From the NCBI GenBank assembly GCA_964620905.1, contig CAZUKA010000002.1, positions 25,496 through 89,495 of the forward strand: a stretch of DNA of 64,000 nucleotides, in the 5' to 3' direction. The DNA comes from an uncultured Gammaproteobacteria bacterium. GTDB lineage: Bacteria; Patescibacteriota; Patescibacteriia; S139-126. Of the stretch, positions 6,003 to 54,132 are shown piece by piece (the stretch's first letter is position 1; every line of letters begins with the position of its first letter). Below the pieces are notes generated by a model. That model made no database searches and was not told the origin of the DNA. It saw nothing but the letters and a program-made list of their open reading frames with translations. The position numbers and the translations under genes are program-made.

Positions 6003-6560
6003 TTATACCCTTTCGACGTATTCGCCAGTTTCCGTATTAACTCGAATCTTGTCGCCCGAATTGATAAACATTGGTGCTTGGATTGTCAGACCATTTTCCA
6101 AAGTGATTTGTTTGGTCACTGATCCAGCTGAATCACCTCGGACACCAGGTGGCGCTTCGGTAACAGTATACTCTACTTTGGTTGGCAAAGAAATTGTGAC
6201 TGGTTTATTGTTATATAAAAGTACATCAACTTCCAGACCTTCTTTTAGGAATTTAATCATTTCCGAAATTTCATTTTTAGTTAAAGAAAATTGTTCGTAG
6301 GTTGTACCATCCATAAAATGATAACCATCACCATCAGCATATAAAAAAGCCGCTCGCCGTCTTTGAATATCCGCTTCATCGACTTTATCACCGCCGTTAA
6401 ATGATTTTTCTATCACTTGTCCAGTGATAAGATTTTTTAATTTAGTGCGCAAAGTAGCACCGCTTCGGGCTACTTTGATATGTTGAGTGAATTGTACCAC
6501 ATAAGGTGCTCCGTCTATTTCCAGTACACGCCCAAGCTTAATTTCTGACATTTCTAACAT
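6003..6560 (-). CDS. efp: elongation factor P
   Basis: 185 aa, EF-P KOW/OB domains (KLGRVLEIDGAPYVV...KPVTISLPTKVEYTVTEAPPGVRGDSA). Confidence 0.9.
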   Translation of the reverse strand: MLEMSEIKLGRVLEIDGAPYVVQFTQHIKVARSGATLRTKLKNLITGQVIEKSFNGGDKVDEADIQRRRAAFLYADGDGYHFMDGTTYEQFSLTKNEISEMIKFLKEGLEVDVLLYNNKPVTISLPTKVEYTVTEAPPGVRGDSAGSVTKQITLENGLTIQAPMFINSGDKIRVNTETGEYVERV

Positions 6561-7923: not shown

Positions 7924-9132
7924 ATGAAACAGTCAAGTATCAATAAATATTTTTTTATTTTAGGTAGCCATCCAGCTTTATCCGTAGCAGAAATTTTAGC
8001 TTATTTAAATACAAAAAAATGCCAATTTTCTGTTACTCAGGCTGTAAAGGACTGTCTAACAATAACTAGCAACAATATTTTATCCTCTGATATTTTACAG
8101 TTTATTGGTGGCAGTATAAAATTTGGGCAAATAGAAAAAAGTATATTTAACCAACCAACCGAAAACGATTTGATTGATTTATTGCCGCTTACCGATAAGA
8201 TATTTTTTGGACTATCATATTATTCAGATAAGTTAGATAGAAAAAATTTACCTGATTTATTGCGTCTGGGCTTGGGAGTGAAAAGAATGTTGAAAAACAA
8301 AGGTAAAAATTGCCGATTGGTTACTAGTCGACAGACAAATCTTTCGGCAGTGGTAATTAGTAAAAATAAATTGTTGAGTACTTCTGGAGTAGAAATAGTA
8401 ATTGTGGTTGCTAAGCAAGGTTATTTATTGGGAAAAACTTTGGCCGTACAACCATTTGAACAATTAAGTCAGAGAGATTATGGTCGTCCCCAGCGAGATG
8501 ATCACAGCGGCCTGTTGCCACCCAAGTTAGCTCAAATCATGTTGAATTTAAGTCAAACAATTCCTGACGAACTAATTTTAGACCCTTTTTGTGGTTCTGG
8601 TACTATACTGCAAGAAGCTTTATGGCAAGGTCGGCGGCAGATTATTGGTTCTGATATCTCAACTAAGGCAGTGGCTGATAGTAAAAAAAATTTAGCTTGG
8701 TTGCAAAGTCAGTATGGTTTGTCATTAAATGAGGTAAAATTTTTTCAATCATCAGTTAAAGAATTAACCAAGACAATAAAGTTAGAGAGCATAGCGGCAA
8801 TTGTCACTGAGCCAGATTTGGGTCGGCCGGATATTAGTCAAAAAAATTTATTAACGGAAAAAGTCAGGTTGGAAAAATTATATTTAGAGGCTTATCAAGT
8901 TTTTTTTAAATTATTGAAAAAAAGCGGCCGAGTAGTAATGGTCTGGCCGGTTTTTTTCCAAGATAATTTTTTAGATATTGAGCAGCAAGTTGAAAAGATA
9001 GGTTTTAAAAAGATTAGGCTGTTGCCGACCGAATTATTAAATATTTATAAGTTAAATAAAAGAAATAATTTACAATATGCCAGAGCAGAACAAAAAGTGG
9101 CTAGAGAAATTACTAGTTGGCAAAAAATTTAA
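7924..9132 (+). CDS. putative SAM-dependent nucleic-acid methyltransferase (UPF0020/Trm11-like)
   Basis: DPFCGSGTILQEA motif-I-like SAM-binding signature; 402 aa. Family assignment is approximate. Confidence 0.5.
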   Translation: MKQSSINKYFFILGSHPALSVAEILAYLNTKKCQFSVTQAVKDCLTITSNNILSSDILQFIGGSIKFGQIEKSIFNQPTENDLIDLLPLTDKIFFGLSYYSDKLDRKNLPDLLRLGLGVKRMLKNKGKNCRLVTSRQTNLSAVVISKNKLLSTSGVEIVIVVAKQGYLLGKTLAVQPFEQLSQRDYGRPQRDDHSGLLPPKLAQIMLNLSQTIPDELILDPFCGSGTILQEALWQGRRQIIGSDISTKAVADSKKNLAWLQSQYGLSLNEVKFFQSSVKELTKTIKLESIAAIVTEPDLGRPDISQKNLLTEKVRLEKLYLEAYQVFFKLLKKSGRVVMVWPVFFQDNFLDIEQQVEKIGFKKIRLLPTELLNIYKLNKRNNLQYARAEQKVAREITSWQKI

Positions 9133-10213
9133 ATTTTTATTAATTTTTTTATTATTGAATACATTGGGGCTGTGTGTTTATACGGTATTTTATTTTTTAC
9201 AGGTTAAAAGCCATTCCTTTTTTTATCCTGGAGTTTTGACTAGCTACAACCAATTAAAATCAGCCCAAACTATTGACAGGCAAGAAGTAGTAAATAGTCG
9301 GGAACTTATTTTTGGCGGTGATGTGATGTTATCCCGCCATGTACAAACTTTACAAGAAAAACAAGGTTCTTATTTGTCAGCTTGGGAAAATATTTATAAA
9401 AAATTTAATCAAGCTGATTTAGCAATTATCAACCTTGAATCTCCTTTTGCTAATATTGGTCCTTATCCTACCGAAGGTATGACTTTTCGAGCTAAACCAG
9501 AAAACATGAAAGCTTTACTGCAGGCTGGGATTGATGTGGTACATCTGGCTAATAATCACTTTGGCAACGCAGGTCAAGAAGGCATGGAATATACTTTAAA
9601 ATTATTAGCTGAAAATAATATTTCATTTGTTGGTGCTGGTTTAAATAAGCAAGAAGCTTATCAAGGGAAAATTATTGAAATTGAAGATTGGCGAGTTGGG
9701 GTAGTTGGACAAAGTTATGATGTACCTTGGTATGCGGTTGGAGAAAATTCTCCTGGTATTGCGGTTTATGATTTAGAGAAATTGCGTTTCGCTATTGGAG
9801 AGCTGAAGGCCAACCAAGCTGATTTTATTGTAACTATGTTTCATGGTGGGATAGAGTATACCCATACTCCCAATCAAGAACAAATAAATTTTGCTCATAC
9901 AGCCATTGAGGCGGGGGCTGATGTGGTAATTGGTCATCATCCGCACTGGATTCAGGACGCAGAAGAATATCAGGGTAAATATATTTTTTATTCTTTGGGC
10001 AATCTGATTTTTGATCAAAACTGGTCTCAAGAGACCAGTCAAGGATTGGTAGTCAGTCTAGAGATTGTTGATAATAAAGTAACTAAGGTAATTTTAAGGC
10101 CGGTTATTATTGAAGAAAATTTTCGTCCGCGCTTTACCACTTTGACTGAAAGTGAAAATATTTTGCACAACGTCAAATTACCTTTTGCTTATGAACTATC
10201 AGTTGACAATTAA
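9077..10213 (+). CDS. CapA/PGA-capsule-synthesis family metallophosphatase, membrane anchored
   Basis: N-terminal TM, GGDVMLSRHV and GHHPHW metallophosphoesterase motifs. The start overlaps the upstream gene by ~56 nt, so the start is uncertain. Confidence 0.6.
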   Translation: MPEQNKKWLEKLLVGKKFKFLLIFLLLNTLGLCVYTVFYFLQVKSHSFFYPGVLTSYNQLKSAQTIDRQEVVNSRELIFGGDVMLSRHVQTLQEKQGSYLSAWENIYKKFNQADLAIINLESPFANIGPYPTEGMTFRAKPENMKALLQAGIDVVHLANNHFGNAGQEGMEYTLKLLAENNISFVGAGLNKQEAYQGKIIEIEDWRVGVVGQSYDVPWYAVGENSPGIAVYDLEKLRFAIGELKANQADFIVTMFHGGIEYTHTPNQEQINFAHTAIEAGADVVIGHHPHWIQDAEEYQGKYIFYSLGNLIFDQNWSQETSQGLVVSLEIVDNKVTKVILRPVIIEENFRPRFTTLTESENILHNVKLPFAYELSVDN

Positions 10214-12050: not shown

Positions 12051-12390
12051 ATTTATAAAGAGATTTTATCCAACCATTAGTCATTTTTGACATTTCTTGC
12101 AAAATGGAGATTAATTCTAGATATTGTTTTTGGGAAATAATTGTTAGTTCTTGGCAAATTCTTAGTAATCGTTTTGTAATTTCAATATTAATTCGTGATT
12201 TTTCTAAAATATTAATCTTGGTTGATTTGTTTGACAGAGCGGCTTCAATCAGTAGAGTAATAATGTTTAAACATATGTTTTCAATTTTAAGAAAAATTCC
12301 CAACTTATCTTTTTTTGCTAGTCTGGATGAAATTTGGTATATTTTTTTATATAATTCAAAACTTCTATGTACCAACGGCACATTTTGCAA
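12049..12390 (-). CDS. Avd-like accessory variability determinant (four-helix-bundle protein, 23S-rRNA-IVS protein family)
   Basis: 113 aa amphipathic helical protein. Pattern (HRSFELYKKIYQIS...IENICLNIITLLIEAALSNKS...LEKSRINIEITKRLLRICQEL...MTNGWIKSLYK) matches the PF05635/TIGR02436 family that includes DGR Avd. It is encoded antiparallel to TR and RT. The start is TTG or GTG; there is no ATG. Confidence 0.65.
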   Translation of the reverse strand: MQNVPLVHRSFELYKKIYQISSRLAKKDKLGIFLKIENICLNIITLLIEAALSNKSTKINILEKSRINIEITKRLLRICQELTIISQKQYLELISILQEMSKMTNGWIKSLYK

Positions 12391-13432
12391 AAACTCGTCG
12401 GGGGGGGGGATTAAAGGACATAATTTATTTGAGCAAATTATTAGTTTAGATAATTTGTTTTGCGCCTGGCGCGAGTTTCAGTGCGGAAAAATGAAAAAAC
12501 CCGATGTGCGTGAGTTTGCTTTTGCTTTGGAAGATAATATTTTTTCCTTGCACGACGAATTAAAAAATAAAACTTACCGACACTCTCATTATACTTCATT
12601 TTATGTATCTGACCCAAAGCTAAGGCATATTCATAAGGCCTGTGTCAGGGACAGGGTATTGCACCATGCGATATTTAGAGTTTTATATCCTGTGTTTGAT
12701 AAGTCATTTATTTTTGATTCTTATTCCTGTCGGTTAAAAAAAGGCACGCACAGGGCAGTTGATAGGTTAGAGAGATTTTGCCTTATGGTCAGTCAGAATA
12801 ATAATTACAACTTTTACTATCTAAAATGTGATATTAAGAAATTTTTTGTTTCGGTTGATCAGGAGATTTTAGTTTGTCTTATCAAGAAAAAAATTGTTGA
12901 TCCAGACGCACTCTGGTTGATACAAGAAATTACTAATAGTTTTCAGACTAGCAATAACAAAGGATTACCGTTGGGTAATGTCACTAGCCAGCTTTTAGCT
13001 AACATTTATTTAAACAAACTTGATCAGTTTATAAAACATCAGCTAAAGGCTAAATATTATCTCAGATATTGCGATGATTTTTTGCTATTATCACCTGATA
13101 AAAATTTATTGGTTGATTATGTCGGGTTGATTGATGATTTTTTACAGAACCATTTAAAACTCAATCTCCATCCTGACAAAATAATCATAAAAAAATACAA
13201 CCAGGGAATTGACTGGTTGGGCTATGTGGTTTTGCCGCATTACCGGCTACTGCGCACCAAAACCAGGCACAGGATTATTGAGCGGATTAAGAATAAACAA
13301 AGAGATTTTAAGTCAGGAGTTGTCAGTCAAGAGCATTTTTGCCAGTCAGTCCAGTCGTATCTGGGAGTGCTTGAGCATTGTTCCGGGTATAAAATAGAGC
13401 GAGAGATGCTGCGCCTTGTGAGTAATGATTAG
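12367..13432 (+). CDS. DGR-type reverse transcriptase (frame interrupted by the G10 tract at 12400-12409 in this assembly)
   Basis: RT motifs: CRLKKGTHRAV (motif 2), YYLKCDIKKFF (motif 3/A), GLPLGNVTSQLLANIY (motif 4 with DGR-specific SQ), RYCDDFLLL (motif 5/C, YxDD), LGYVV (motif 6). The co-linear frame is open from 12104 but its first ATG is at 12491, inside the conserved N-terminal region. The ATG at 12367 is in frame only if the G-run is 9 rather than 10. Confidence 0.85.
12400..12409. repeat. G10 homopolymer at the 5' end of the RT gene / 5' UTR of the Avd-like gene
   Basis: Ten consecutive G in a ~35 % GC genome. It sits 31 nt after the ATG at 12367 and 10 nt upstream of the minus-strand Avd-like start. 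Confidence 0.8.
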
Positions 13433-26568: not shown

Positions 26569-27180
26569 ATGGGCAATTTTTTTAACAAATTAATTCCAAA
26601 ATTGAGACAAGAATTTATCCTGGTAATTTTTTTATTGGCCGGTTATGCCGTTGCCCAACTAGATCTAAATCAAATTCAGGTTTCAATGATTTACAGTGCT
26701 TTATTGTTTTTGTTGGTGGTATGGTTGATAAAGATTTTTATCAGAGAAGATTTTACTAGGTATTATAAAAGTTTTATTATTTTGGTGTCTGGCATAGCGA
26801 TGTTGGCAATAGGTTTATATTCTTTTATTAGTTATTATTTACAAATTATTGCCAATCAAACCTATTCAATCATTGAATATTTTTATCTTTTTTTTCCAGG
26901 GTGGGTAATGTTGGAAGGTGCGCTAATGTTATTTATATTAAATTTTGATAGTGCTATCAAAAGTTTTGATTTAGCTGGTAAGGTAGAAATTACCGAACCG
27001 TTATTAGGTGATTATTTGACGGTAGCCCTAGCTACCGTAGTATTGATTATTTTGGGAGATTTTATTCTTGATTTTCCTTGGCATTTGAATATCTGTTTAG
27101 TGCTCACGGTTAATTTGATAGTTATTAACCAATTTGCTGGACAAGTTGATCAACCCAAAAAAATTAAAGAAAAAAAATAA
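26569..27180 (+). CDS. hypothetical polytopic membrane protein (203 aa)
   Basis: Five hydrophobic segments. Confidence 0.4.
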   Translation: MGNFFNKLIPKLRQEFILVIFLLAGYAVAQLDLNQIQVSMIYSALLFLLVVWLIKIFIREDFTRYYKSFIILVSGIAMLAIGLYSFISYYLQIIANQTYSIIEYFYLFFPGWVMLEGALMLFILNFDSAIKSFDLAGKVEITEPLLGDYLTVALATVVLIILGDFILDFPWHLNICLVLTVNLIVINQFAGQVDQPKKIKEKK

Positions 27181-27242
27181 TGTGGCAGAATATTTTAAAT
27201 TTTATTTTAATGTTATTTGAGCAGATTATAGATCTTCGAAAG

Positions 27243-27270
27243 TAAAAATCCGCATGTTGTGCGGATTTTT
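27243..27270 (+). terminator. rho-independent terminator (aaaaatccgcatgttgtgcggatttttt)
   Basis: 8-bp stem with a T-run. Confidence 0.7.
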
Positions 27271-27353: not shown

Positions 27354-28016
27354 TTAGGTTTTATTTATTTTGTGCCATAACCACCACGAATAGCCCATAG
27401 TAAAAAAAACAGTTAAAAAAATTGTTAGTCCAAAAATCCAAATATAAATTTTAGGATCAAATAAAATTCCTAAGATCATCAATAAGCCAGATAGAAAAAA
27501 TATTTTTCCACCTAGACGGTGAGTTTTATTCCAGATCTCTTCGTTGGCCAGAGTCCAAGGCGTACGAATACCTACAAACCAGTTTTTTTTCACTTTAGGT
27601 AGCAGATTCCCAATTACCATAAACAATAAACCAATACTCAAAGGAACAATTTTAGCGATTGGTACATTGTAACCGAGACAGTTGCAGGAGCTTGCTAAAT
27701 AAAGCAGAGTAAAAAGAGTTACTAAAGATAAGCGAATAGATTGGTAAGCCGTGGAAAATTCCTCATAACGTTTTTTAAAAGGATCAAATAAAGGTAAATA
27801 TAAAAGTAATAAATATAAAAATAGAATAAGCCCGGGGAAGAAAAAAGCAGCAAAAGTTTTATTTGACCAACCATCTGGTTGTCCGGCTAAATTCCAATGG
27901 ACTGGAACAGAATCGGGAAAATTAGAAAAAAAATAAATACTAGCCAGGAAGTTTATAATTATTAAAATTACTGCCCATTGTTCTTTTTGCCAATTGATCT
28001 GGTAAGGTAATTTCAT
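27354..28016 (-). CDS. SdpI/YhfL-family membrane protein (DUF1648)
   Basis: N-terminal DUF1648-like VPVHWNLAGQPDGWSNK motif and multiple TM helices. Located downstream of an ArsR-type regulator gene. Confidence 0.6.
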   Translation of the reverse strand: MKLPYQINWQKEQWAVILIIINFLASIYFFSNFPDSVPVHWNLAGQPDGWSNKTFAAFFFPGLILFLYLLLLYLPLFDPFKKRYEEFSTAYQSIRLSLVTLFTLLYLASSCNCLGYNVPIAKIVPLSIGLLFMVIGNLLPKVKKNWFVGIRTPWTLANEEIWNKTHRLGGKIFFLSGLLMILGILFDPKIYIWIFGLTIFLTVFFTMGYSWWLWHKINKT

Positions 28017-28024
28017 ATAGTAAG

Positions 28025-28291
28025 TTAATATTTAGTAAATATTTTTGTCAGTTGGCTGATAATTTCTTCTAGCACCGATAGGTTAAGACTATAAATAATA
28101 TTTTTTCCTTGACGTCGACGGGAAATAAGACCGACAGTATATAGAATATTTAGATGGTAAGAAAGTGAAGCTCCACTTATACTAAAATGAGATAACAGTT
28201 CGCTGACCGACAAATCCTTTTTTTTGAGCAAGTTTAGGATTTTTTGTCGATTGCTGTCGGCTAGAGCCCAAATGATATTTTTGGTGGACAT
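28025..28291 (-). CDS. ArsR/SmtB-family transcriptional repressor (SdpR-like)
   Basis: Winged HTH (LSVSELLSHFSISGASLSYHLNILYTVGLISRRRQGKNIIYSL). The ORF track start is 9 nt further upstream at 28300. Confidence 0.7.
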   Translation of the reverse strand: MSTKNIIWALADSNRQKILNLLKKKDLSVSELLSHFSISGASLSYHLNILYTVGLISRRRQGKNIIYSLNLSVLEEIISQLTKIFTKY

Positions 28292-28325
28292 AAATAACAT
28301 TTAGATATATATCTAAATGTTATTT
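28292..28325. promoter_or_regulatory. perfect 34-bp palindrome (17-bp arms) at the 5' end of the ArsR-family gene; putative autoregulatory operator
   Basis: aaataacatttagatat|atatctaaatgttattt. Confidence 0.55.
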
Positions 28326-28403
28326 TATTTAGACTTATTTGTCAATAGATGTTTTTTAAAGTAGTGTTTTTTGTGTTATAATAATTATGAATTTTAAAAC
28401 CCT

Positions 28404-31064
28404 ATGTCGTTTTCGGTAGACAAAAATAGTCAAGCCAAACAAAAAAATTTTTTTGTTTTTTTGTCCGTTTTTGGGTTAACATTTTTTTTATTATTATTAG
28501 GTTATAGTTTACGAGCCCAAAATATCGTTTACCCGATAGAAATTTTAAATTTGTTTGATGGTCAAACAATTTCTTCAACAACTTATAAATTTAAATTTGA
28601 AGCAAAAAATGAGATTGAATTTTTGGAATTGCGTTTTATCCCTTTAGGTAGTGCTGATGCAAAAGGACGTCAGGCTTATGCTAAAAGAGAGAGCGGGAGT
28701 AGCAATATTTGGATTTTTGATTTAGAGACTACTCAATTGGGCAGTGGTAATTTTCGTTTGGAAACCGTGGCAATTTATTCTGATCAAACAACAGTTGCTG
28801 GACAAACTAAAAATTTTACCATTGCTCAAAATCTGACCTTTGATACAAAAATAAAAATCGCTAGCCCTGTATCAGGACAAATAATAAATGAACCAATTTA
28901 TTTTACAGCTGAAACAAATATTCCTGTTGCGGAAATAGTTTTTTCAATTTTTGACAGCAATAAAATCTTGCAAGATCAACTAATAAGTAGCACTTCCACC
29001 CCGACTTTATATCATCAAGTCAAATTTTTACCATCAACAATATCCAGAGATGGGAAGTATCTACTACAAGCAGAGTATATTAGTCCAACTAGCACTTTCT
29101 CTTCCCTGGCAGTGGATTTTTATATAGCCAATTCTGTAGCTGATATTAATACTTCCACAACAAGCATTTTTCTAGTTTCTCCTGTTGAGCAGGCAACTAT
29201 TGTGGGTAATGTTTTATTGCAAGCAAAGGTTTCCACTTCGGTTGATGAAGTTTATTTTCGTTTGGATAGTGATTTTATTCCTGCCAGAAGGTTTGATCAG
29301 AATATTTGGCAAGAATATATTTTGACCAATAATTATACTACCGGTACCAAAGATTTATTGGCTGTAGCTCGTCTGAGTGAGAAGGAGTATTACAGTAACC
29401 GTGTGCAAGTAAAAATAGGTAATGATGATTCTATCAGACCAAATCAAGATTTACCAAAACAGCCCAGCTATATAATTACCACGCCGTTGGTTGATAATAG
29501 TAATACCAATTCCCTGAATTCCACGACAACAGTAAATATTTTAGATGAAAGTACCACCACCAGCCCAATAGAACCAACAAATTTATCAGAATCAGAGCAG
29601 AGATTAATTGAATGTCAAAATCAGGACATAAAAAATATCAGTTGTGGGGTTTATTTAAAAAATAAAGATAGTTTTACAGCTGAGTGTATCAATAAGGTTT
29701 TAAATGTGGATGAATGTTTGACCGGATTTTCTAAATGTCAAGTTGGCGGTATTGTTGATATTGATTTATGTCAAAAATATCTGACCGAACCGCGGGCAGC
29801 GCGCTGGTGTGATTTGGTTGAATTTAAAAATCAACCATTATGTCAAAATTATTTATTAGAGAAAAGAACGTCTGGTTTAATCAGACCAGAGGTTGATTTA
29901 ATTTGTTTACAACAATCAATTTTCAATTCCCAAGCTTGTCAGCGTTTTAAGGAATATATTAGCTTGTCTACTGAATGTCAACAAGCCGGTTTTAAACGAT
30001 TAGCTGATTGCCGTCAGTTTTTGCAAGCCAATATCTTACCCGCGGCTTGTAGACTTATTGGTCAAAGTGATTTAGCTCTGTGTCAGCAAAATATTTTACA
30101 AAAATATCAGACCGGCGGTTATTGCCAAGATGAAAACTGCCGTGAGGATTTAAAAAAATTTATTGGTGAATTGTCGGCTCGTGAAATTTCTTTGCATATT
30201 CTAAAAGAAGTACAGCAGAAAAAGACCAATGGTTTTCTAACGAATGATGATCTGGGTTGGTCGCCCGTTCAAGCTTTACAATCTCGTTTGGCAGTTTCTT
30301 TGCAGCCAAATTTTTCTTATCAGTTGCTACCGGCTGATGATCAAATCAAAATATCTCAAGGTTTTATTTCTCAACCGCTGCCAGCAATGGTAGTCAAAGA
30401 CTCTGATCAAGATGGCTTGCCTGATGATATGGAGCGGAGAATCGGTTCGGATCTTACCAGCTCAGATACTGACGATGATGGTTATAATGATTTAACTGAA
30501 GTTTTAAATGGTTATGATCCTTTACTTGCAGGAGCTAAGTGGTCAAGATTACTGTCGGCAGTAGAAAAAGCTATCATCAATAGGCAAACATTCCAACATC
30601 CTGTGGTTGGTGGTCAGGAGACAGACGAATTGCAAATTGAATCAATAACCAATTCACCAGCCGAAGTAAATGCCAACTTATTACTACGTGGTACAGGACC
30701 GGCTTACGGGGTTTTGAGTCTTTATTTTTATTCTGATTTACCATTGTTGGCTACCGTTCAGGTTGATGAATACGGTCGTTGGCAATATGATTTGTCAGAT
30801 AGTTTGACTGACGGATCACATCAAGTATATTTGGTAATCAATGATGAAACTGGTAAGGTGCAAAAAAAATCAACGCCACAAGTATTTTTTATCAATCAAG
30901 CCAAAGCCGCAGCCGTAGGTGAATTTATTGATTTGACTGTTTCCGAAGAAACTACTGCACTTGAGAAGTATTATATTTGGGGTGCGACAGTTCCGATACT
31001 TTTAGCTTTGGGTCTATTTTTATTTTTGCGTCGCCGCCATAAAGATGAAATTCAATTATCATGA
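28404..31064 (+). CDS. large cell-surface protein (886 aa) with signal peptide, Cys-rich central region, thrombospondin-3-like Ca-binding repeat, C-terminal TM anchor
   Basis: N-terminal hydrophobic signal. DSDQDGLPDDMERRIGSDLTSSDTDDDGYNDLTEVLNGYDPL motif. C-terminal hydrophobic helix followed by RRRHK. Confidence 0.55.
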   Translation: MSFSVDKNSQAKQKNFFVFLSVFGLTFFLLLLGYSLRAQNIVYPIEILNLFDGQTISSTTYKFKFEAKNEIEFLELRFIPLGSADAKGRQAYAKRESGSSNIWIFDLETTQLGSGNFRLETVAIYSDQTTVAGQTKNFTIAQNLTFDTKIKIASPVSGQIINEPIYFTAETNIPVAEIVFSIFDSNKILQDQLISSTSTPTLYHQVKFLPSTISRDGKYLLQAEYISPTSTFSSLAVDFYIANSVADINTSTTSIFLVSPVEQATIVGNVLLQAKVSTSVDEVYFRLDSDFIPARRFDQNIWQEYILTNNYTTGTKDLLAVARLSEKEYYSNRVQVKIGNDDSIRPNQDLPKQPSYIITTPLVDNSNTNSLNSTTTVNILDESTTTSPIEPTNLSESEQRLIECQNQDIKNISCGVYLKNKDSFTAECINKVLNVDECLTGFSKCQVGGIVDIDLCQKYLTEPRAARWCDLVEFKNQPLCQNYLLEKRTSGLIRPEVDLICLQQSIFNSQACQRFKEYISLSTECQQAGFKRLADCRQFLQANILPAACRLIGQSDLALCQQNILQKYQTGGYCQDENCREDLKKFIGELSAREISLHILKEVQQKKTNGFLTNDDLGWSPVQALQSRLAVSLQPNFSYQLLPADDQIKISQGFISQPLPAMVVKDSDQDGLPDDMERRIGSDLTSSDTDDDGYNDLTEVLNGYDPLLAGAKWSRLLSAVEKAIINRQTFQHPVVGGQETDELQIESITNSPAEVNANLLLRGTGPAYGVLSLYFYSDLPLLATVQVDEYGRWQYDLSDSLTDGSHQVYLVINDETGKVQKKSTPQVFFINQAKAAAVGEFIDLTVSEETTALEKYYIWGATVPILLALGLFLFLRRRHKDEIQLS

Positions 31065-32425
31065 AGAAATTATTTTTACATAAAAATTTTCAGCTTATTT
31101 ATGGATTGATTTTGGTAATTTTGGTACCGGTGGTAATAATTGTCAACACCCTTTCGCTCAATCGAAATTTTAGACACAATTTAGATATTCAATTACAACG
31201 ACAAGCTTTATCCTTTGGTCGATTATTTAATGTATCTTTGTATAATTCTACTTGGCAACCAAATGAAGTTCAGGCAGTAATTGATGCCACTCTAGACAAA
31301 CAAAAAGATATTAGATTGATATCGGTTTTAACTGCTGATAATGATAATTTTCGCGTGGTTGCTAGTTCAGTTGTTGGTCAGGTAAATCAACAAGTTTTTT
31401 CCACCCATTATTTTTTTTCTTGGCAGCGCAGTGAAGCCATTGCCAGTTTAGTAAGCAAGGAGAGTTTATTTGAGTTATTTCCTCAATCTGATCAAATTAT
31501 CAGTTCTGATAGTCGTTTTTGGTTGGTAGTAATGCCATTGGTTGACCAGGAAAATCAAAAAAAATTATTACTCACCATGGTCGTGTCTTTAGATGTCATG
31601 GATCAACTTATCACTTCAACCTTGTTAAGAAGCTATATATTTTTGACCATTACTGTATTAATCCTCATTTTATTATTGTCAGCCAATACTAGATTGTTTA
31701 CCTATGCTTCACTTTATCGTAAAATTAAAGAAGTTGATGAGATGAAAGATGAATTTATATCCATCGCTTCACATGAATTACGTACACCTCTGACAGTGAT
31801 CAAGGGATACATTTCTATGTTGATAGCCGATGGCAAGAATATATTGACTGCCGAACTGCGTGGTTATTTAGACACTATCAATAATTCCGCTGACCGTTTG
31901 TCAGCTTTGGTTGAAGATTTATTGAATGTTTCTCGGATTGAACAGGGACGCTTGCAAATGGAAATACAGTCATTGGATCCCTTACCGGTGATTAAAGAAG
32001 TATTAGCTGAATTGCAAGTTGAGGCGGAACGGAAAAGTATAATGTTGTCCTGTGAATGTAGCAGTAATTATTTAATAAAAGTTGATCCAGCTAGATTGAA
32101 GCAAGTGTTGATCAATATAGTTGGTAACGCGATTAAATATACAATTACTGGTACGGTCAAAGTCAAACTGACAGTAAAAAATGGACAGTTGGAAATCAGA
32201 ACAATTGATTCCGGTATTGGTATGTCAGCAGTAGAGCGGGAACGACTCTTTCAAAAATTTTATCGCATCAAAAATGATAAAACAAAAAACATTGTTGGTA
32301 CTGGTCTAGGCTTGTGGATTACCAAGGCGGTTGTGGAGTTGATGGGCGGACAGATATATATTGATAGTATCGAAGGGGTGGGTACACAAGTGAGTATTAA
32401 TTTTCCTCTAATAAAAAACAATTAA
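31061..32425 (+). CDS. sensor histidine kinase
   Basis: Two N-terminal TM segments, H-box SHELRTPLTVIKGY, N/G1/G2 boxes (GTGLGLWI). Confidence 0.8.
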   Translation: MKKLFLHKNFQLIYGLILVILVPVVIIVNTLSLNRNFRHNLDIQLQRQALSFGRLFNVSLYNSTWQPNEVQAVIDATLDKQKDIRLISVLTADNDNFRVVASSVVGQVNQQVFSTHYFFSWQRSEAIASLVSKESLFELFPQSDQIISSDSRFWLVVMPLVDQENQKKLLLTMVVSLDVMDQLITSTLLRSYIFLTITVLILILLLSANTRLFTYASLYRKIKEVDEMKDEFISIASHELRTPLTVIKGYISMLIADGKNILTAELRGYLDTINNSADRLSALVEDLLNVSRIEQGRLQMEIQSLDPLPVIKEVLAELQVEAERKSIMLSCECSSNYLIKVDPARLKQVLINIVGNAIKYTITGTVKVKLTVKNGQLEIRTIDSGIGMSAVERERLFQKFYRIKNDKTKNIVGTGLGLWITKAVVELMGGQIYIDSIEGVGTQVSINFPLIKNN

Positions 32426-32434
32426 TTTTAATTT

Positions 32435-32797
32435 ATGATAAAAAAAATATTGATAGCAGAAGATGAGCCGGACATACTGAAAATGTTGCAAGATATGTTG
32501 CAAACAGCCGGTTGGCAGGTAACCGCTGCTGCTGACGGTGAAGAAGCTTTGCAAAAGTTGTCAGCGGATAATTTTGATCTACTATTGCTTGATATGCAGA
32601 TGCCCAATAAAGATGGTTTTGCAGTTTTGGAGATTCTGCAAAGCGAGGGCAAATTACCCAAACAAAAAGTGGTAATCTTATCCAATATTGACAATGAGAA
32701 ATGGGTTAAGCGTGCCAAAGAATTGGGAGCGATCGATTATTGGTTGAAAGTCGAAGTCCACCTCACAGAATTGATAGAAAAAATAAAAAAATTATAA
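32435..32797 (+). CDS. single-domain response regulator (CheY-like receiver)
   Basis: ILIAEDEPD...LLLDMQMP...K motif, 120 aa, no output domain. Confidence 0.8.
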   Translation: MIKKILIAEDEPDILKMLQDMLQTAGWQVTAAADGEEALQKLSADNFDLLLLDMQMPNKDGFAVLEILQSEGKLPKQKVVILSNIDNEKWVKRAKELGAIDYWLKVEVHLTELIEKIKKL

Positions 32798-51048: not shown

Positions 51049-54000
51049 TTATTTTTTAAACCAAGGGGAATGGGTATAACCTTCTTTACCCGACCAGAGG
51101 TAGAGAGTGGGAATATCGGAATAAAGTTCTTGATGAATATCGCTTGAATAAGTCCAAAAAATAATATTTTTAAATTCTTTTTTAAGAGCTTCGGATTCAA
51201 TTTTTCTCATCACATAATATCTCTTGGCTTCATTTTTATAATCCTTAAATCCTCTATGTTTGGCTGATTTTTCTAGCTCGGCACTGTTTTTTAAATCTCG
51301 CCACTCTCTTTCTGTTAATAATTTAAGATTATTTTTTATTATAATGTCAGATAATTTTTGTCTTTTCCATAGTTCACTTAAATATTTACTGGTATATCCA
51401 GCTTTTTTAATAAGTTTTTTTATTTCTTTTAGATATTGTTCATAAGTATTTTTATTATACTTATTCAACCTTGCATGTTCGTTAGCTAAAATAAAAATAA
51501 AATTAAGACCCGGCTTATAAATGTTTTTAATTTGATTATTTAACTGTTGAAATTTTTTTAATGCCGCTAAGTCTTTTTCGTCTATTTTTAATTTATCAGA
51601 TGCTCCCCAGAAACCAACTAAATCAATCGGTTTATTTTTTAAAACAAACTGATTGATTGCAAAGGCGATCTCGTCCTCCTTATAGGGGACATCTCTTGAA
51701 ATATTTCTTTGATTGAATAATTTTAAAATTTCATCAGCTATAGATGGTTTAATAAATTGTGGCAAACTCGCCCTCATTAACCAAGGATAGATTTTATACC
51801 ACGCTTGTCTAGCATTTTCTATACCCGCACTATTGATTTTTAATTTTTTATCCCAAAATTTTATTAATTCATTAAACATAACATCATGATTTAGCATAGT
51901 TGGAAATTCATTTGTAAAATATTTCAAAGCCTTAATTTTGTTTTTCTTTATAAAATTTATTGTTTCTTTTAAAGCCGAAACAAAAGATATGATTGCGGGT
52001 TGAAATTTTGGATCAAGATTATCGCAGATTGTAATACCTGTAAATAAATAATCTCTAAAATAATCTTCAAAAGAATAAACAATATGTCCCCCGCGACCAA
52101 CTAAGTCTAATGCATAATCTACAGTCATAATACCAATATCCACCTTTCTTTCTTTTAATGCCTTAACTAAGGCATTAGATTTAATAGGAATAAATTTTTT
52201 ATTGGGTAATATTTTTTTAGCAAGTGTATTGGTTGTTGAAAATTCTTGATAGGTACCAATTTTGTAATTATAAAAATCATCTAATTTTTTAATTTTTATA
52301 TTTGGGTCTAATGTAACTGCGACCACGGGAACACGACCGATTAATTGTCCAACAATTTTTCCTTTGGTTTTAAAATTTGAAGCAAAAGAAAAAACTGGAT
52401 CAGCGATACCTATTTGAGCAGAGCCTGACATTAAGGAATTATAAGTTAAATCATCGCCCCCCGAAGAAATAAAATCTATATCTAGTTTGTGTTTTTTATA
52501 ATAACCTAATTTGGCTGCTAAGTAGGCCGGAAAATAAAGGGGCATTCTTGAAAATTCAGCCACCAACATTCTGTATTCTCCCGGCTTATCATCGATAGTA
52601 CTTAATGTTTCTTTAGTGATTATTCGATGATAATTTTTATGTAGTTTATTAAATTTAAGATTTTTGTACTTGTTGAAATAAACTAATTCTTCTTCGGTTA
52701 AAAAACCATATCTCTGTTTAGTTGGATAATCTAGTTTACCTTTATTTTCTGATAATACTGCCTTGGCCACATCGCCATCTTGTGTTCTAAAATTAAAACC
52801 AACATTCATACCTGCACCATTGGAAAATGGAACTTTGTAACGCCAGGCAATATAATCGGGCAAGAATTCTTCGGCTACCTTTCTTAAAATATATTTAGTA
52901 GTAACTTGATGATTTTCTCTTTTAATTTTTAGACTACCATCAATTTGTAGGGCAAATTCTGCGACTTTGGTATCAAAAAATGGAGCTCGAGTTTCCAATG
53001 TATGTTTCATAGACATTCTATCCACGCGCATATTATGGCTTCGTTCCAAATCATTAGTGATTAGATAGCAACCCTTATTTACATGTTCATCACTTAATCT
53101 TGAAAACTCATTATAGCCCCCAAATAGTTCATCTGCTGCTTCACCAACTAATGCTATACGATAACCAGCTCGAACCACTTCTTTTGAAAGGATGTCTAGC
53201 GCAAAAGATTGTCTTATAACTTGAGCCTCATACATTTCTAGATGATAGATTAAGTTTTCAAATTCTTTTGCATAATCAACATTCGGATAAACAATATGAT
53301 ATTTATAATTATTGTCTTTGCATAACTTTAAAGAAGCTTCATAATCAGAAGAGCCTGGGAAGCCAAGTATAAAGGCAGTTACGTTTTTATGAAATCTTGT
53401 AGCTATCTCCATTATAAGACTACTGTCAACACCACCGCTTAATAAAACTGCGATTGGCAAATCAGTATCAACTCTTTTTTTTACTGCTTCGACCATTAAT
53501 TCAGTTAATTTTGTTTTTGCAAAATCTAAATCTTTAATTTTGTTGTTGTAATTTATTTTGTGATAAGCTTTTATTCTCCCATTATACATATAACATCCTT
53601 TGGGGAAAATTTTTACTTCTTTTATAAAATCGAATTGTACTAGCTGTTTTATTTCCGAACCAAAATAAAAGTTTTTATTTTTATCTCTAGCATAAAATAA
53701 AGGTTTTACACCAAAACGATCTCTAGCTACAAAAAAATTATTTTTCTTAGTATCATAAATTACAAAGGCATACATTTCCGAATCAATTTTTTCGATCATT
53801 TTTTCTCCGTACTCCTCATACAAATGTGCTAATACTTCCGTGTCACAATCCGTTTTGAATTTATGCTTCTTTTTTTCTAATTGAGATCGTAATTCTTTAT
53901 AATTAAATATTTCACCGTTTTGGGCAGCAAAAATAGTACCATCTTCATTAGATAGCGGTTGATGACCAGTATCACGACCAACAATTGGTAAGCGATTGGC

Positions 54001-54132
54001 TCCTAAGGCACCTTTCTCAAAAACTCTTAATTCATAAAAATTAGTACCTCGATGTTTAATCTTACTTAAAGAATCTCTCATGAATAATTCTTTTTTTTGG
54101 TAATTGCCGAAAACAGCTGTAATTCCACACAT
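51049..54132 (-). CDS. asparagine-synthetase (glutamine-hydrolysing) homologue fused to an NMT1/SsuA-like periplasmic-binding-fold domain and a ~280-aa C-terminal domain of unknown function (1027 aa)
   Basis: Ntn amidotransferase MCGITAVFG, PP-loop SGGVDSS, AsnB C-domain. Residues ~520-760 resemble NMT1/THI5/SsuA binding proteins. The C-terminal third has no recognisable family. Confidence 0.75.
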   Translation of the reverse strand: MCGITAVFGNYQKKELFMRDSLSKIKHRGTNFYELRVFEKGALGANRLPIVGRDTGHQPLSNEDGTIFAAQNGEIFNYKELRSQLEKKKHKFKTDCDTEVLAHLYEEYGEKMIEKIDSEMYAFVIYDTKKNNFFVARDRFGVKPLFYARDKNKNFYFGSEIKQLVQFDFIKEVKIFPKGCYMYNGRIKAYHKINYNNKIKDLDFAKTKLTELMVEAVKKRVDTDLPIAVLLSGGVDSSLIMEIATRFHKNVTAFILGFPGSSDYEASLKLCKDNNYKYHIVYPNVDYAKEFENLIYHLEMYEAQVIRQSFALDILSKEVVRAGYRIALVGEAADELFGGYNEFSRLSDEHVNKGCYLITNDLERSHNMRVDRMSMKHTLETRAPFFDTKVAEFALQIDGSLKIKRENHQVTTKYILRKVAEEFLPDYIAWRYKVPFSNGAGMNVGFNFRTQDGDVAKAVLSENKGKLDYPTKQRYGFLTEEELVYFNKYKNLKFNKLHKNYHRIITKETLSTIDDKPGEYRMLVAEFSRMPLYFPAYLAAKLGYYKKHKLDIDFISSGGDDLTYNSLMSGSAQIGIADPVFSFASNFKTKGKIVGQLIGRVPVVAVTLDPNIKIKKLDDFYNYKIGTYQEFSTTNTLAKKILPNKKFIPIKSNALVKALKERKVDIGIMTVDYALDLVGRGGHIVYSFEDYFRDYLFTGITICDNLDPKFQPAIISFVSALKETINFIKKNKIKALKYFTNEFPTMLNHDVMFNELIKFWDKKLKINSAGIENARQAWYKIYPWLMRASLPQFIKPSIADEILKLFNQRNISRDVPYKEDEIAFAINQFVLKNKPIDLVGFWGASDKLKIDEKDLAALKKFQQLNNQIKNIYKPGLNFIFILANEHARLNKYNKNTYEQYLKEIKKLIKKAGYTSKYLSELWKRQKLSDIIIKNNLKLLTEREWRDLKNSAELEKSAKHRGFKDYKNEAKRYYVMRKIESEALKKEFKNIIFWTYSSDIHQELYSDIPTLYLWSGKEGYTHSPWFKK

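Follow-up and report, generated by a model that had tools for sequence, protein, structure and literature searches.

The window analyzed here, the 64-kb stretch of contig CAZUKA010000002.1 presented above, belongs to a probable Patescibacteria/candidate phyla radiation (CPR) bacterium. It carries on its minus strand a gene for an sdpR-like repressor that lies upstream of a gene for an sdpI-like membrane protein, with a gap of 8 nt between the stop codon of the former and the start codon of the latter (Table 1). A perfect palindrome in front of the regulator overlaps the predicted promoter of the pair, and a terminator-like hairpin follows sdpI. The hairpin lies between convergent genes and is common to sdpI and the convergent operon; none of 200 shuffled sequences gave one as stable.

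Table 1. Features of the sdpR/sdpI-like locus, in positions of the window
Feature	Position	Strand	Basis and remarks
Terminator-like hairpin	27244..27270		11-bp stem AAAAAAUCCGC...GCGGAUUUUU; -13.2 kcal/mol, z -4.7
sdpI-like gene	27354..28016	minus	220 amino acids, six predicted transmembrane helices; DUF1648 + SdpI
sdpR-like repressor gene	28025..28291	minus	88 amino acids; HTH_5 + SdpR-family profile matches
Perfect 34-bp palindrome, 17-bp arms	28292..28325		inverted-repeat search, 100% complementary
Conserved operator core ATTTAGATATATATCTAAAT (ATTTAGA-N6-TCTAAAT)	28299..28318		comparative footprint
-10 hexamer TAACAT	28317..28322	minus	promoter scan; inside the promoter-proximal palindrome arm
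Possible weak second site ATTTAGACTTATTTGTCAAT	28327..28346		perfect left half, 2 mismatches in right half; over the -35 box
-35 hexamer TTGACA	28340..28345	minus	promoter consensus scan

The preliminary description of this DNA, made from the letters alone, had paired an ArsR/SmtB-family repressor with a DUF1648/SdpI-family membrane protein and had let the latter assignment hinge on profile similarity. Profile searches upheld both assignments. In the membrane protein, Pfam SdpI (PF13630) matched residues 141 to 209 (E 3.8e-21, 75.4 bits versus a gathering cut-off of 28.2) and DUF1648 (PF07853) matched residues 17 to 65 (E 2.1e-17, 62.9 bits versus 28.7), both far above their cut-offs. By inspection, its six hydrophobic runs and the positive-inside distribution of K/R pointed to an N-in/C-in topology, which would place a PxxVPxHWNxxGxxDG motif in outside loop 1 and a GNxxPKxKxNxFxGIRTPWTLxxEExWxKTHRxxGK motif in cytoplasmic loop 4; these two motifs were the most conserved parts of the protein across 70 homologues. 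Their placement agrees with the topology that Povolotsky et al. proposed for SdpI in 2010, with six transmembrane segments, motif 1 outside, and motif 2 in the cytoplasm (PMC2910880). We found no solved structure that resembles the SdpI-like protein by sequence, and no member of the SdpI family has been solved. The regulator matched HTH_5 in Pfam (E 7.6e-11) and passed the generic ArsR/SmtB model of NCBIfam (NF033788, 71.7 bits versus a cut-off of 55). Its top NCBIfam match, by far the best model, was the "autorepressor SdpR family" (NF033789, 91.8 bits, E 1.9e-26), and its close relative P0004 carries the NCBI name SdpR family.

The palindrome consists of the arms AAATAACATTTAGATAT (28292-28308) and ATATCTAAATGTTATTT (28309-28325) with no spacer between them, and it is the longest perfect palindrome of the window, the runner-up having arms of 11 bp. 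Across 200 Markov shuffles, of orders 1 and 3, the longest arm was 8 to 12 bp; the 17-bp arms found here are thus real and lie far outside what chance produces, even at the 34% G+C of the window. It was identical in two further samples of the same species (L001 and L002). The regulator start had been described as embedded in this palindrome, which applies to only one of two possible starts. The minus-strand open reading frame (ORF) at 28025-28300 offers two in-frame ATGs, one at 28300 and one at 28291, the first of which would extend the protein by MLF, and both starts are in use among public gene calls (88 amino acids in P0001, 91 amino acids in P0010). Since the homologues, of 86 to 93 amino acids, align with the start at 28291, the probable start codon (28289-28291) is merely abutted by the palindrome, whereas the alternative ATG (28298-28300), a mirror image of the CAT within the -10 box TAACAT, lies inside it.

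A consensus promoter scan detected TTGACA-17-TAACAT on the minus strand, running from 28345 to 28317 and matching at 10 of 12 positions. With its -10 hexamer inside an arm, this promoter is expected, from the usual -10 spacing, to start transcription at the palindrome center, at about 28310, and the operator core overlaps both the end of the -10 box and this predicted start. A mirror-image promoter on the plus strand that would use the other TAACAT was also considered; the best candidate by inspection, ATGATA-17-TAACAT, matched at 8 of 12 positions, under the scan threshold, and was rejected. The divergent 886-amino-acid gene has an extended -10 promoter of its own, TTTAAA-16-TGTTATAAT (28355-28382, plus strand). 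A search of the window for further copies of the 17-mer arm or the core, which might have indicated a wider regulon, returned only the promoter site (0 to 1 mismatches) and weak matches at chance level. The possible second site over the -35 box was absent from the closest relatives L003 and L005; since it is not conserved, it is of low confidence and may be due to chance.

The core of the palindrome was conserved well beyond this species. The regulators of the near relatives are 45 to 59% identical to that of the window in the alignment (48 to 62% by local BLASTP), and the closest clade (L003 to L008) retains the window's flanking genes, whereas L009 and L010 do not. All of these near relatives retain ATTTAGA-N6-TCTAAAT 7 to 16 nt before the ATG and downstream of TTGACA, whereas the surrounding intergenic DNA has diverged. 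For more distant loci, the regulator alignment was scanned against 185,579 species genomes, which yielded 80 loci from Patescibacteria (Falkowbacteria, Buchananbacteria, Parcubacteria, and others), Clostridia, Bacilli, and metagenome-assembled genomes labelled Gammaproteobacteria. The core was exact in 33 of the 80 loci and had two or fewer mismatches in 48, with a spacer that was always 6 nt, and all 38 of the exact cores present in 470 kb of loci lay within 240 nt upstream of the regulator. A position matrix was built from the 48 sites, in which several positions that the search had not selected were also conserved: the spacer bases TA and TT, ATCTAA as a third half-site toward the gene (in 33 to 40 of the 48), and a TAwTAT -10 box that overlaps the first two operator bases in the same register as in the window. 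TTGACA at a similar distance was visible in most of the related loci and in Bacillus sp. N5-665, the chromosome of which (L091, filed among plasmids) has TTGACA-17-TAATAT fused to ATTTAGATAAATATCTAAAT-GTCTAA before sdpR-sdpI. This strain, Neobacillus cucumis (P0014, L058), and Terrilactibacillus (L071) all have the core upstream of a member that NCBI names SdpR.

The reverse test, in which metagenomes were scanned with the 26-nt DNA motif alone, led back to the same gene. Of the 120 loci obtained, 102 had an sdpR-like gene starting no more than 200 nt away; the extension was on the gene side in 86 of these and on the far side in 16. Another 7 of the 120 were cut by contig ends. In a few metagenome loci (L119, about 6203-6234; L204, 5219-5244; L166, 791-816) the 26-nt operator precedes something other than sdpR: a gene that its N-terminal sequence suggests to be ABC ATPase-like, a 551-amino-acid gene without a family assignment, or sdpI directly. 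In viral contigs (IMG/VR, including giant-virus bins; L213 to L332), the 20-nt core pattern had at least 120 matches, none of them beside an sdpR-like gene, so the 14 specified bases alone are not diagnostic in very large AT-rich collections; we read these matches as chance occurrences in AT-rich DNA. Carriage of the pair by phages was considered as well, and the phage records contained only one weak SdpI-like match and no evidence for it. Base composition gave no hint that the DNA was acquired recently.

The conservation was confined to a part of the palindrome. Of each 17-bp arm, the inner 10 bp alone are conserved family-wide, and the outer 7 bp are lineage-specific, which refines the view of the whole palindrome as an ideal operator for an ArsR-type dimer. 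In the window, the spacer and 7 further bp on each side of the core are perfectly symmetric; a fully symmetric spacer occurred in only 6 of the 48 operators, and symmetry of at least 5 bp beyond the core likewise in only 6, the window included. This extra symmetry possibly allows tighter or more symmetric binding, or the binding of a second dimer.

The operator was also found to vary together with the protein. In all 51 loci with an AGA-type core, the recognition-helix motif SxS-[H/Y]-HL has H or Y (Y in the window and L009, H in the other AGA-type regulators), whereas in all 28 loci with ATTTAAC-N6-GTTAAAT, which are mostly of the Lachnospiraceae type (L023 to L088, L064 being one of this AAC class), the motif is SxS-R-HL. 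The AAC-type operators occupy the same promoter position, and so does the symmetric double change ATATAGA-N6-TCTATAT found in a third small clade (L017 and L040). A dimeric repressor and its operator would be expected to show just this, symmetric operator changes tied to a residue of the helix that reads the DNA. This residue is a candidate determinant of specificity, and H/Y versus R might switch the readout from AGA to AAC.

We conclude that the locus is probably a two-gene self-repressed operon of the sdpR-sdpI type. The comparisons support the palindrome as a likely genuine, phylogenetically conserved operator that overlaps the promoter. Autorepression by the sdpR-like protein, as the preliminary description had predicted, appears well supported at the sequence level, because the core is conserved, is located just upstream of the regulator and on its promoter, and has variants that track the helix residue. 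In the mechanism that we propose, a sigma-70-type promoter (TTGACA, 28345-28340, and TAACAT, 28322-28317) would drive sdpR and then sdpI, and the transcription unit would end at the hairpin at 27244-27270. We infer that a dimer of the 88-amino-acid winged-helix protein binds the core at 28299-28318; since the operator reaches over the end of the -10 box and over the predicted start, bound repressor would block RNA polymerase.

How this repression may be relieved is suggested by Bacillus subtilis, in which SdpI captures SdpR at the membrane upon sensing its ligand, so that repression is relieved and SdpI is raised (PMC2910880; PMC6818787). Membrane sequestration in the window is inferred only from that system. 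By this analogy, a ligand or a membrane perturbation would be sensed at the outside loop of the SdpI-like protein, which would then capture the repressor on its conserved cytoplasmic loop, and the level of SdpI would rise and protect the membrane. The high conservation of loop 4 and the near-obligate linkage of the two genes, an SdpI-like ORF following the regulator in 81 of 85 related loci, would fit sequestration without proving it.

The pairing of the two genes was described in 2010 (PMC2910880), and the locus resembles sdpRI of B. subtilis in several respects: an ArsR-type repressor gene stands directly upstream of a six-helix DUF1648/SdpI gene of about 210 to 220 amino acids in one operon, the best family match of the regulator is SdpR, and the two SdpI motifs are placed in the same loops. 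Unlike in B. subtilis, the 64-kb window contains no sdpABC-like genes, and its probable Patescibacteria/CPR host is no sporulating Firmicute, so that Spo0A/AbrB control cannot apply. The SdpR + SdpI pairs annotated by NCBI in N. cucumis (L058/P0014), on the Clostridium estertheticum plasmid pCF007-A (L092), and in L091 have the same gene order and promoter architecture as the window, with the same core in L058 and L091 and one that is two mismatches off in L092. However, most such pairs carry the ATCTAA half-site, in place of which the window has its 34-bp perfect symmetry, and the Firmicute pairs carry a Shine-Dalgarno sequence, unlike the window. The "SdpR" of the brasilicardin cluster of Nocardia terpenica is also of the ArsR type and binds its own promoter at two sites, but it uses a different 14-nt box and regulates biosynthetic genes, and SdpI is unmentioned (PMC12185567); it shares only the name. 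We found no published operator for an SdpI-linked SdpR in the open-access literature that we searched.

Several observations weigh against a self-repressed operon of this type. The SdpR-family score of the regulator, 91.8 bits, is slightly below the curated NCBI cut-off of 100 for NF033789, which we treated as a borderline annotation threshold rather than an exclusion. The third half-site ATCTAA is missing in the window and also in its closest relatives L003 and L005. The co-variation of helix and operator follows clades, and thus represents few independent events. A Shine-Dalgarno sequence is absent before both sdpR and sdpI. B. subtilis was absent from the 120 listed of 4,166 matches to a Bacillaceae homologue and from the matches in the plasmid collection, and its sdpR promoter lay outside the operator comparison. 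Finally, no toxin gene was found among the ORFs of at least 120 amino acids in the 64-kb window, and no third gene was conserved within about 3 kb of the pair in 85 loci.

SmtB, CzrA, and CadC autorepress through an AT-rich inverted repeat over the promoter, with operators of the 12-2-12 type. The regulator of the window shares the winged-helix fold family with them, its nearest solved structures being SrnR, SmtB, CzrA, and CadC, and it passed a model named "metalloregulator ArsR/SmtB" (NF033788), all of which would suit a conventional sensor that is released from DNA by directly binding a metal, a metalloid, or reactive sulfur/oxygen, with the membrane protein as a resistance effector (e.g., an exporter) and no sequestration involved. 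We consider such a sensor very unlikely here. The 88-amino-acid regulator contains no cysteine, and the alpha5 ligands of SmtB, D104, H106, H117, and E120, are replaced by L, V, I, and K, respectively (by inspection, in the SmtB alignment register), none being conserved, so that it does not look like a metal sensor. Moreover, SdpR is its best family match, its partner is an SdpI/DUF1648 protein, a presumed anti-repressor and neither a known metal transporter nor a small-ligand-regulated one, and the two genes are almost always linked. Even less credible, in our estimate, is that the palindrome is no protein operator at all and either arose by chance or serves a structural role, be it as a cruciform, a terminator, the end of a mobile element, or a hairpin in the RNA that hides the start codon. 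Its unusual perfection and the lack of conservation of the outer 7 bp per arm in relatives could be taken that way, but the core recurs in several phyla, always at the same promoter position, the stem is not G+C-rich and has no T-run, the window has no Rfam match besides two tRNAs, and the palindrome has no second copy in it. As for an RNA hairpin or terminator, these were ruled out by the -10 box inside one arm, which leaves only half of the palindrome to be transcribed. The comparative data largely refute a structural or chance origin.

The preliminary description had further suggested that the pair may be an orphan immunity module. This was borne out insofar as none of the window ORFs of at least 120 amino acids matched the SdpA, SdpB, or SdpC models (E <= 1e-5), but the orphan state is not distinctive. 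Only the R and I families were conserved within about 3 kb in the 85 related loci, with no conserved third gene; the next most frequent "families" were antisense shadow ORFs or lineage-specific neighbors, such as a SpoU methyltransferase and an ABC ATPase, the latter encoded directly after sdpI in 8 Lachnospiraceae-type loci. A pair without a linked toxin is therefore the family's usual state and no peculiarity of this locus, and that stand-alone pairs are the rule speaks against SdpC as the usual signal of the family. It is conceivable, although we lean against it, that the operon works at the DNA level as proposed while its SdpI-like protein serves as a general sensor/protector against membrane-active compounds or envelope stress rather than in dedicated immunity to a peptide toxin. 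Such a role would account for the many genomes, the majority, in which the pair is found on its own. It agrees with the lack of a conserved third gene and of Sdp toxin genes in the window, and with the spread of the pair over many phyla and onto plasmids of Bacillus (including B. cereus/thuringiensis), Clostridium, Staphylococcus, and haloarchaea. The same operator before an ABC ATPase gene or the 551-amino-acid gene in some loci, along with the 8 loci that have an ABC ATPase gene after sdpI, likewise hints at a broader role against membrane-active compounds. On the other hand, there is no direct evidence for any ligand, toxin genes could lie elsewhere in the genome, and SdpI of B. subtilis is specific for SDP, giving no protection against the YIT toxin, a paralogue of SDP (PMC6818787).

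Going further than a self-repressed operon in a single genome, one could propose that the SdpR family has one portable operator code across phyla, ATTTAGA-N6-TCTAAAT, usually with ATCTAA added, in which H/Y versus R sets AGA or AAC, and that the cassette is a self-contained, horizontally mobile sensor/protector against membrane-active agents, retained even by genome-reduced CPR bacteria. We regard this as rather unlikely in its full extent. We found no description of such an SdpR operator code in the searchable literature. The family is very large, one Bacillaceae query alone matching more than 4,166 clusters (E <= 1e-10), and is routinely named by NCBI, whereas a 2025 paper names SdpI of B. 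subtilis as its sole characterized member (PMC11995493), i.e., one member has been studied experimentally among more than 4,000 protein clusters. As the pairing of the two genes was already known, the gain in knowledge is modest: the comparison yields, as a by-product, a concrete family-wide operator consensus and a candidate specificity residue for this scarcely studied family. For the locus itself, we consider the annotation settled: it is a complete sdpRI-type module that regulates itself, and its promoter, operator, and terminator are defined.

Some of the closest relatives carry disrupted copies of sdpI. In L003 (4270-4944), codon 89 of sdpI has changed from CGA to the stop codon TGA next to an intact sdpR, whereas sdpI is intact in L004. 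In L005 and L006 (4269-4930), sdpI has lost 1 nt from an A8 run, again with sdpR intact, whereas L007 and L008 have an intact sdpI and an identical regulator. These sdpI-inactivating population variants could be real losses, phase variation, or homopolymer sequencing errors.

According to Pfam scans, the neighbors of the pair in the window are housekeeping or unrelated genes. Those on one side encode serine hydroxymethyltransferase (SHMT), a radical-SAM enzyme, a methyltransferase, a bactofilin-like protein, a ferredoxin, a PF04020 four-helix protein, and a 203-amino-acid membrane protein, and those on the other side encode an 886-amino-acid Ig-like surface protein, a histidine kinase, a response regulator, an ABC exporter, a HIT-domain protein, and PlsY. 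The product of the 886-amino-acid gene (28404-31064, plus strand), which is divergent from sdpR, carries a signal or anchor at its N terminus and a membrane anchor at its C terminus, is cysteine-rich in the middle, and has matches to Big_13/TSP3. An A/T palindrome with 11-bp arms (28437-28458) lies inside the 5' end of this gene. The histidine kinase gene (31061-32797, plus strand) is followed by a stand-alone receiver domain, and this synteny is retained in the close clade.

A small ORF for a hydrophobic peptide of 21 amino acids, MWQNILNFILMLFEQIIDLRK (27180-27245, plus strand), is convergent to sdpI and stands just before the shared terminator, its start codon sharing the sequence TAATG with the overlapping stop codon of the gene for the 203-amino-acid membrane protein. 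Versions of 18 amino acids with the same overlap were found in L003 (MWQYLLNIIVSLFEIFDN) and in L005 and L007 (MWQYIINIILSLFEIFDN), and both the 203-amino-acid gene and the small ORF are confined to the close clade. More speculatively, this hydrophobic peptide of 18 to 21 amino acids might be the cognate membrane-active ligand of the SdpI-like protein, mirroring the convergent sdpABC/sdpRI layout of B. subtilis.

Three further genes lie elsewhere in the window. One (12104-13432, plus strand) encodes a 442-amino-acid reverse transcriptase that matched the group II intron reverse transcriptase/maturase model (2.2e-38; its 132 bits fall short of the cut-off, 300) and Drt3a (8.6e-22); Rfam at gathering thresholds identified no intron RNA in the window, where its matches were the two tRNAs only. 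Another (51049-54132, minus strand) encodes a 1027-amino-acid asparagine-synthase-like protein with a long C-terminal extension, which matched a lasso-peptide cyclase model (1.1e-34). The third (9077-10213, plus strand), far from the 1027-amino-acid gene, encodes a 378-amino-acid protein with a weak match to the lasso-peptide epimerase MslH.

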